A DNA stretch of 64,000 nucleotides from Escherichia coli (lineage in GTDB: Bacteria; Pseudomonadota; Gammaproteobacteria; Enterobacterales; Enterobacteriaceae). A program made the translations under genes and the position numbers. Every line of letters begins with the position of its first letter. The first letter of the stretch is position 1. Positions 57,061-58,116 of the stretch are shown here, piece after piece. Where the stretch lies: the NCBI RefSeq assembly GCF_044324785.1, contig NZ_CP172127.1. The stretch is one strand, 5' to 3'. The notes under the pieces are model-generated. The model saw only the letters and a list, made by a program, of their open reading frames with translations. It made no database searches and was not told the DNA's origin.

Positions 57061-58116
57061 ATGACGACATTTATTCAGCTTCATTTGTTAACCGCTTACC
57101 CTGCTGCCAACCTTAACCGTGATGACACCGGTGCGCCAAAAACTGTGGTACTGGGTGGAGCAACGCGTCTGCGCGTTTCCTCACAAAGTCTGAAACGTGC
57201 GTGGCGCACTTCTGCACTTTTTGAACAGGCACTGGCGGGCCATATTGGTATTCGCAGTGGGCGTATTGCGCGTGAGGCGGCAACTATCCTGATTGAGAAA
57301 GGCATCTAAGAGAAAAAAGCCATCGAATGGGCGGCAAAAATTGCGGATTATCTTGGGAAAGCTAAAAACGACAAAAAACCAAAAGATCCGCTCACTAACG
57401 CCGAAACTGAACAGCTAGTCCATATCAGCCCGGCAGAATTTGACGCCGTAAAAGCGCTGGCCCATCAACTGGCCGAAGAAAAGCGCGCGCCAAAAGAGGA
57501 AGATCTCGCTTTGTTACGTAAAGATCGCATGGCGGTAGATATCGCTATGTTTGGTCGTATGCTGGCGAATAAACCCGAATTTAATGTTGAAGCCGCCTGC
57601 CAGGTCGCGCATGCATTTGGTGTCAGTGAAACGATTGTCGAAGATGATTTTTTCACCGCCGTTGATGATTTGCGCCAGGCTTCTGAAGATGCCGGTGCCG
57701 GGCATCTTGGTGAAACCGGATTCGGTTCAGCACTTTTCTACACCTATATCTGCATTGATAAAGATCTGCTGGTCGAAAACCTCGGCGGTGATGAAGCGTT
57801 AGCTAATCAGACCATACGCGCCTTTACGGAAGCTGCGCTTAAAGTCTCCCCCACCGGTAAACAAAACAGTTTTGCCAGTCGTGCCTACGCCTCCTGGGCG
57901 CTGGCAGAAAAAGGCACCGAACAACCGCGTTCTCTGGCGGCGGCTTTCTATGAACCCATTAACGGTACCGGGCAGTTAGAGGTGGCGGTGCAGCGTATTA
58001 CAACGCTTCGCGAAAATATGAATACGGTCTACGAACAGAAGACCGAATGCGCAAGCTTTGACGTGATGAACAAACAGGGAAGCATGAAGGACGTGCTGGA
58101 CTTTATCTGCGCGTAA
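57061..58116 (+). pseudogene. casC: Cas7 / CasC (Cse4) interrupted by an in-frame TAA stop at 57307-57309
   Basis: ORF-track pieces 57061-57309 ([22 protein letters not shown]...[12 protein letters not shown]...ILIEKGI*) and 57511-58116 are in the same frame; reading through the TAA gives a continuous 351-codon Cas7-like sequence (...EKKAIEWAAKIADYLG...FTAVDDLRQ...) homologous to K-12 CasC. Confidence 0.8.

Follow-up and report, generated by a model that had tools for sequence, protein, structure and literature searches.

Does a single stop codon in the gene for Cas7e really disable the CRISPR-Cas locus of type I-E found in this stretch of Escherichia coli DNA (64 kb, referred to throughout as the window), and, if the lesion is genuine, how did it arise, what would it do to the system, and why was it kept? 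The locus occupies positions 51822 to 61512, between cysH-hok and iap-cysD. Its genes, cas3, cse1, cse2, cas7e, cas5e, cas6e, cas1e and cas2e, followed by a leader and an array, have the composition and order of a type I-E system; all the cas ORFs score above the cut-off of the corresponding I-E-specific NCBIfam models, their order is the same as in the annotated strain N3, and the adjoining array consists of 29-nt repeats of the E. coli type and spacers of 32 to 33 nt. The features of the locus are the following.

51822–54521, plus strand: cas3, intact, 899 aa, with HD domain, helicase and C-terminal domain
54522–54950, no strand assigned: cas3-cse1 intergenic region, 429 nt, AT-rich, presumed site of the operon promoter; a rare variant
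54547–54575, minus strand: a lone degenerate CRISPR repeat, matching at 25 of 29 positions and reversed in orientation
54951–56513, plus strand: cse1 (casA/cas8e), intact, 520 aa
56510–57046, plus strand: cse2 (casB/cas11), intact, 178 aa
57061–58116, plus strand: cas7e (casC/cse4) pseudogene, 351 codons with one internal stop; 444 bits with TIGR01869
57061–57309, plus strand: ORF of an 82-aa N-terminal fragment, ending early in the part aligned with the beginning of the K-12 CasC fingers domain
57307–57309, plus strand: premature TAA at codon 83, ancestral GAA (Glu); followed by G (context TAAG)
57511–58116, plus strand: ORF of a 201-aa C-terminal fragment; first in-frame restart candidate, a TTG at codon 151
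58127–58873, plus strand: cas5e (casD), intact, 248 aa
58855–59505, plus strand: cas6e (casE), intact, 216 aa
59502–60425, plus strand: cas1e, intact, 307 aa
60422–60715, plus strand: cas2e, intact, 97 aa
60716–60811, plus strand: region on the leader side of CRISPR1, from cas2e to the first repeat; 0 differences from the wild-type sister locus L032
60812–61512, plus strand: CRISPR1 array, 11 canonical 29-nt repeats and 10 spacers (s1 to s10) with a 61-nt period

An earlier note on this DNA had claimed that cas7e is broken by one in-frame TAA, with no indel, in an otherwise intact cas operon. Translation from the ATG at 57061 bears this out in frame and coordinates: 82 codons are followed by the TAA at 57307–57309, by 268 more codons in the same frame, and by the terminal TAA at 58114–58116. 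With the stop masked, the 351-aa protein matches positions 1–325 of the 325 in the Cas7/Cse4/CasC model TIGR01869 with a score of 444 bits, the cut-off of the model being 178 bits; similarity to the profiles of the Cas7e/Cse4/CasC family (TIGR01869, PF09344) thus extends over the full length, while the unbroken ORF of ~351 codons expected of a family member is interrupted by the TAA. The Cas7e of the annotated strain N3 is matched at 99.7% with one stop. The description of the rest of the operon also stood: cas3, cse1, cse2, cas5e, cas6e, cas1e and cas2e all have one ORF that runs the full length. Among the ~50 genes of the window compared with strain N3 only cas7e has an internal stop or gap, indicating that the region is not generally decaying. 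The subunits of Cascade are therefore not all complete, owing to the stop at codon 83 of cas7e, and the locus is best described, from its gene content, as a member of type I-E by descent whose effector is predicted to be non-functional.

Some features of the upstream half of the locus were also recorded. Of 5426 complete E. coli genomes, just two, N3 and 06-00048, contain the whole of the 429-nt form of the cas3-cse1 intergenic region; in strain 120899 and in locus L006 the region measures 98 nt and is without the degenerate repeat. In the window this repeat overlaps by 3 nt the 3' end of a hairpin that follows cas3 (54526–54549). We considered whether the intergenic region might be a leader-like sequence, and rejected the idea, as nothing in it but the repeat resembles the CRISPR leaders; scans of the cas operon for promoters and terminators returned nothing above chance. 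A truncation of cas3 (899 aa as opposed to 947 aa elsewhere) was likewise discarded: the longer form, a common allele found for example in strain 120899 (locus L012, 953–3796), results from a perfect 48-aa (144-nt) in-frame tandem duplication in the helicase region, and the 899-aa form is the one present in both the window and N3. A gene for a 50-aa toxin of the hok/gef family lies between cysH and cas3 (51475–51627).

Origin and distribution of the codon 83 stop

By direct comparison, codon 83 is GAA (Glu) in E. coli N3, TUM13867, O157:H7 EC4115 and O104:H4 2011C-3493, and it is also GAA in Escherichia sp. MOD1-EC7003, the sole species representative matched in the genome collection. A sense codon is thus found at this site in five orthologues as well as in the wild-type sister L032, and since it is GAA in every orthologue examined, the lesion amounts to one G>T transversion at 57307. 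This settles which of the sense codons one substitution away from TAA, listed in the earlier note as candidates for the ancestral state, is the right one: GAA in all the orthologues read.

Single-base differences are the commonest form of assembly error, and the allele is present in no complete RefSeq E. coli genome, both of which would favor a true G at 57307 and an intact cas7e. Among 5426 complete E. coli genomes, 2648 have this variant of cas7e, and the 71-mer of the window containing the TAA has an exact match in 0 of 2594 complete RefSeq E. coli, a test that is blind to a TAA carried on alleles with other flanking SNPs and was complemented by a search with the allele of locus L006 (see below); the L006 allele with the TAA is also absent from complete RefSeq E. 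coli, its best match being at 99.9%. Against an error stand the carriers. The exact 82-aa product is recorded on 140 contigs and in 187 index blocks, the 201-aa C-terminal ORF on 120 contigs, and the identical allele is found in independent assemblies from NCBI, ENA and Logan. Four independent carrier loci, checked at the DNA level, agree with the window over 6.5 to 12.2 kb with 0 to 1 differences: L005, L008 and L009 (GCA_958306885.1, SRR11094212 and SRR31121375) are identical to it, and L007 (GCA_053151395.1) differs by one base. Moreover, some carrier assemblies differ in structure upstream of cas3. An error of sequencing or assembly, which the earlier note had named as one way in which its reading could fail, is excluded by these independent assemblies with the same TAA to the extent that we give it practically no weight; the lesion is real and heritable.

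The structural difference upstream of cas3 is of some interest in itself. Carriers L007 and L008 have at this point (1–577 in each, ~51638 in the window) an IS4-family element with a 370-aa transposase, inserted in a GC-rich palindrome (GGGGTAAAACCCC) after hok, in opposite orientations; the size of its transposase and its target would suggest a resemblance to IS186. As the element is present in two of the four carriers and in opposite orientations, the mutation must predate some of the diversification within the clone.

A limit on the other side is set by the wild-type sister, L032 (GCA_034489925.1). The repaired protein, with Glu at position 83, is recorded in 83 blocks, and L032 agrees with the window at every base of cas3, the cas3-cse1 intergenic region, cse1, cse2, cas5e, cas6e, cas1e and the CRISPR1 leader, departing from it at one base in cas7e (position 57307) and one in cas2e. 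The near identity of the two operons places the mutation on a very recent branch. The other cas genes have acquired no further inactivating lesion since the mutation of cas7e; this lack of secondary decay in seven genes fits a young mutation, and would also fit continued selection. Altogether we consider it very probable that the cas7e of the window is a genuine nonsense pseudogene, produced by one G>T transversion and inherited by a clone in which the locus is otherwise complete.

The same truncated product is also found on a second background. In locus L006 (GCA_958328965.1; 6001–7056) the 82-aa product is the same, while cas7e differs from that of the window at 37 nt, one of them located 4 nt upstream of the stop; relative to the wild-type allele of strain 120899 (L012) and of many others it is 99.9% identical, with nt 247 as the only difference. 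Judging from this pattern, the stop of L006 would be of independent origin or, at most, would have been carried by a conversion tract shorter than ~110 bp. L006 also has a cas3 in two parts, one nucleotide having been lost from its C7 run.

Two hits at one codon could bring to mind a mutational hotspot or a selection specific to that site, but a search with one truncated product, matched exactly, favors recurrences at that one codon. There are 108 possible single-base nonsense changes in cas7e, at 92 codons, and of ten control truncated Cas7e prefixes nine are on record, with the proviso that many of these records are truncations at contig ends, so that raw counts cannot be read as frequencies. 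At all three of the sites checked in DNA, codons 41, 55 (on two backgrounds) and 79, real single in-frame stops were confirmed, with the rest of the gene continuing beyond them. A hotspot or a site-specific selection at codon 83 is thus unnecessary: in the large body of E. coli sequence on record, nonsense alleles of cas7e are commonplace and fall at many positions, and codon 83 is not special.

Predicted consequences for Cascade

Cas7 is the six-copy backbone of Cascade. The repaired Cas7e of the window aligns end to end with the solved 351-aa Cse4 chain 9uer_E (E = 2e-188), and over residues 1–321 with K-12 CasC (4qyz_D; E = 1e-28). In the alignments with 9uer_E, 5u07_D, 8yb6_D and 4qyz_D, residue 83 falls at about residue 82 of K-12 CasC, where the fingers domain begins, and it lies upstream of every strongly conserved block; according to these alignments the 82-aa fragment is without the thumb and most of the palm.

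The sequence of events that we propose is as follows. A single G>T change at 57307, converting the GAA of Glu83 to an ochre TAA, would have occurred in the ancestor of a natural E. coli clone and would have been inherited since; translation would end at residue 82, short of the thumb and of most of the palm; with no backbone Cascade would not assemble, Cas3 would not be recruited, and both interference and primed adaptation would be lost. With the Cas7 backbone gone, the locus is predicted to be dead for interference and priming. The earlier note had reached the same expectation from the general biology of type I-E systems, and it is supported by the requirement of primed adaptation for Cascade and Cas3 besides Cas1-Cas2, naive adaptation proceeding without the interference complex (PMC10011333).

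Cas6e, Cas1 and Cas2 are still encoded, and their expression may drop by polarity over the 810 untranslated nt of cas7e. In K-12, cas1 and cas2 belong to a single cse1-cas2 operon, transcribed from one H-NS-silenced cse1 promoter (PMC10011333): given this shared promoter, a stop located 810 nt before the end of cas7e could depress the expression of the genes from cas5e to cas2e. A stretch with an excess of C over G (57358–57435, C/G ~1.9) points weakly to polarity of the Rho-dependent kind.

For cas7e to be still functional, the ochre codon would have to be read through or suppressed, or recoded in a programmed way, or else a Cas7 in two pieces would have to form from residues 1–82 and a restarted C-terminal fragment. 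The remaining frame is undamaged, both fragments are predicted by gene callers (the product of the 201-aa ORF being putative), and the TTG at codon 151 has a GAGGA-like sequence 5' of it, all of which would leave some room for such schemes. With regard to read-through, the context found here, TAA with G as the next base, makes for efficient termination in E. coli. Suppression finds no help in the window, since no tRNA gene is present in its 64 kb. Programmed recoding would call for a conserved stop, but this one is limited to one clone plus one independent occurrence, with GAA in all the orthologues whose DNA was read and in the sister; a run of AAAAAA that follows the stop was considered as a recoding or frameshift signal and dismissed, because it is also present in wild-type alleles. 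Finally, there is no in-frame start codon between the stop and codon 151, so that no restart product can span residues 83–150: a two-piece Cas7 would be without these residues, and the restarted product on its own would be without residues 1–150. We regard a surviving function as highly improbable, and continue with the loss of Cas7e as the preferred reading.

Spacer arrays and the fixation of the allele

If the effector is lost, the arrays of carriers and of wild-type relatives may tell whether spacers are still being acquired. CRISPR1 ends, as read by eye, with one more spacer and a degenerate terminal repeat. The second array is located elsewhere in the window, with its leader upstream of it, after queE.

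34200–34777, plus strand: CRISPR2 array, 9 spacers (W1 to W9) between 10 repeats, of which the final two are degenerate
35281–35370, plus strand: CRISPR2 remnant, two degenerate repeats and one spacer, separated from the main array by a 503-nt AT-rich gap

CRISPR1 is identical (s1 to s10) in the window and in carriers L005 and L007, with no private spacer at the leader end of any of these three carrier arrays. In the sister L032 the array (9656–10600) reads s32, s33 and then s1 to s10, with two extra leader-proximal spacers; in the wild-type locus L030 it reads s12, s13 and then s2 to s10; in N3, L029 and L033 it consists of s1, s9 and s10, the outcome of an internal deletion. L032 and L030, each with two extra leader-proximal spacers in CRISPR1, encode the same Cas7e protein as the repaired gene of the window. 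The simplest reading, based on three carrier arrays, is one of continued leader-end acquisition in the wild-type relatives and of none in the null clone; alternatively, the latter may have lost s32-s33 in one deletion. The extra spacers of L032 and L030 suggest recent natural spacer uptake in the lineage. CRISPR2, W1 to W9, is identical in L026, while in two close relatives, L027 and L028, a further spacer, w17, stands between W1 and W2: since w17 is internal, the CRISPR2 type of the window has probably lost one unit by deletion, and the difference is unlikely to represent a gain. The CRISPR2 of strain N3 has three different leader-proximal spacers. Compared with phage and plasmid collections, s32, s33, s12, s13 and w17 have no match.

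These observations do not favor the proposal of the earlier note that the locus may remain competent for adaptation: the CRISPR1 arrays of the carriers are identical and have no private spacer at the leader end, while L032 has two extra ones, and polarity could also lower the expression of cas1 and cas2. The array data, limited as they are, lean in the opposite direction. Taken to its limit, the same comparison would imply that natural spacer uptake in this lineage is Cascade-dependent, that is, primed and not naive, and that a type I-E system other than that of K-12 is active in nature. This further step is conditional on the frozen s1-s10 array holding across all carriers, and we think it rather unlikely; if true, it would be the opposite of the adaptation-competent, interference-dead locus that had been envisaged.

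The earlier note had also suggested that such a locus would tolerate self-targeting or prophage-targeting spacers. The spacers have no match in the rest of the 64-kb window; the leader-proximal spacers of CRISPR2, W1 and W2, have no match in complete E. coli genomes, phages or plasmids, and in the same collections the sole match of W3 is the CRISPR array of strain RM9088. Of all 19 spacers only s10, the oldest of CRISPR1 (61391–61422), matches phages or plasmids, with 32 of 32 positions identical to phages P1, P7 and SJ46 and to ~100 records of P1-like plasmids; its protospacer, in the P1 record that was checked, is flanked by CTG and not by the canonical AAG PAM, and s10 is also carried by wild-type relatives. 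Self-targeting was accordingly dropped as a candidate, no target having emerged from the comparison of the spacers with the window, of all 19 with phages and plasmids, and of W1 to W3 with E. coli genomes, and with no self-target in the window and W1 and W2 matching nothing the suggestion of tolerance finds no footing.

As to the cause of fixation, the mutation was probably neutral or nearly so, and would have been fixed by drift or hitch-hiking in a system that is normally silenced by H-NS. The type I-E system of E. coli has been described as transcriptionally silent (PMC10011333; PMC12248084), and the usual silencing would explain both the nonsense alleles at other codons of cas7e and the second background with a stop at E83. 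H-NS silencing was shown for the cas variant of K-12, from which that of the window is divergent, with a rare cas3-cse1 intergenic region; the leader-end gains of wild-type relatives also indicate that the system may have some activity in this lineage, and that the loss of cas7e may not be strictly neutral.

The inactivation could instead have been positively selected, as an escape from autoimmunity due to self-targeting, or because it allowed a targeted plasmid or prophage, for example a P1-like phage-plasmid, to be kept. Such an explanation addresses why the mutation came about, and does not conflict with the loss of function. It could draw on the spacer gains of wild-type relatives, which imply that the system is sometimes expressed, on the second hit at codon 83, on the perfect match (32/32) of s10 to P1, P7, SJ46 and ~100 P1-like plasmid records, and on the more frequent sampling of the null allele (187 blocks) than of the exact wild-type protein (83 blocks); block counts, however, reflect sampling and not fitness, and the control nonsense alleles at other codons argue for relaxed constraint. 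As for the possible targets, the window contains none of its own, W1 and W2 match nothing and W3 only the array of another strain, whereas s10, with a CTG flank in the P1 record checked, would not direct efficient interference, is the oldest spacer and is shared with wild-type relatives; moreover, s10 is not present in the CRISPR1 of the second background with the E83 stop. Overall we find selection for inactivation unlikely, and still prefer a nearly neutral loss.

Significance and relation to known systems

We found no paper describing this allele or these assemblies. The stop at E83 of cas7e is an ordinary loss of function, of a kind common in the usually silent system of E. coli; it represents one more decayed cas gene and changes no concept. 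Its practical use is as marker and resource, with the Cascade backbone cleanly knocked out by one base and the change fixed in a natural clone that is frequently sampled. Since the operons of the null clone and of its wild-type sister are only two bases apart, the pair constitutes a natural experiment, in which array turnover, content of mobile elements and phage sensitivity, compared between the two groups, could test the role of the native CRISPR-Cas system of E. coli in the wild. Likewise, the locus should be regarded as unable to carry out interference whenever this clone is typed by CRISPR or its CRISPR immunity is predicted.

Among known systems, engineered deletions and knock-outs of casC (cas7e) belong to the Cascade studies carried out in E. 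coli K-12. There, as in the window, the loss of the backbone is expected to abolish Cascade assembly, interference and priming; those mutants, however, are laboratory constructs of the K-12 cas variant, with cas genes that are usually expressed artificially, whereas the allele of the window arose in nature and belongs to the second cas variant of E. coli, whose Cas7e resembles K-12 CasC only distantly (4qyz_D, E = 1e-28).

A natural parallel is provided by the premature stops and frameshifts in cas3 and cse1 of the E. coli O26:H11 strains DEC9A, DEC9E and DEC10D (PMC5592225). In those strains, as in the window, minor damage confined to one or two genes puts an otherwise intact E. coli type I-E operon out of action, and their authors likewise predict an inactive system (PMC5592225). 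The O26:H11 lesions are frameshifts, for which sequencing error was not excluded by the authors (PMC5592225), whereas in the window a base of cas7e has been substituted, a change confirmed by many independent assemblies and placed in time by a wild-type sister locus.

The same end-point, no usable Cas7 and no Cascade, is reached by a different route with the anti-CRISPR AcrIE10, which binds free Cas7 and prevents the assembly of Cascade (PMC12248084): AcrIE10, encoded by phages or plasmids, acts in trans and reversibly, whereas the window carries a heritable chromosomal null. Set beside the solved Cas7e/Cse4 chains (9uer_E, 5u07_D of Thermobifida fusca and 4qyz_D of K-12), what the window encodes is only the first 82 residues of the fold.
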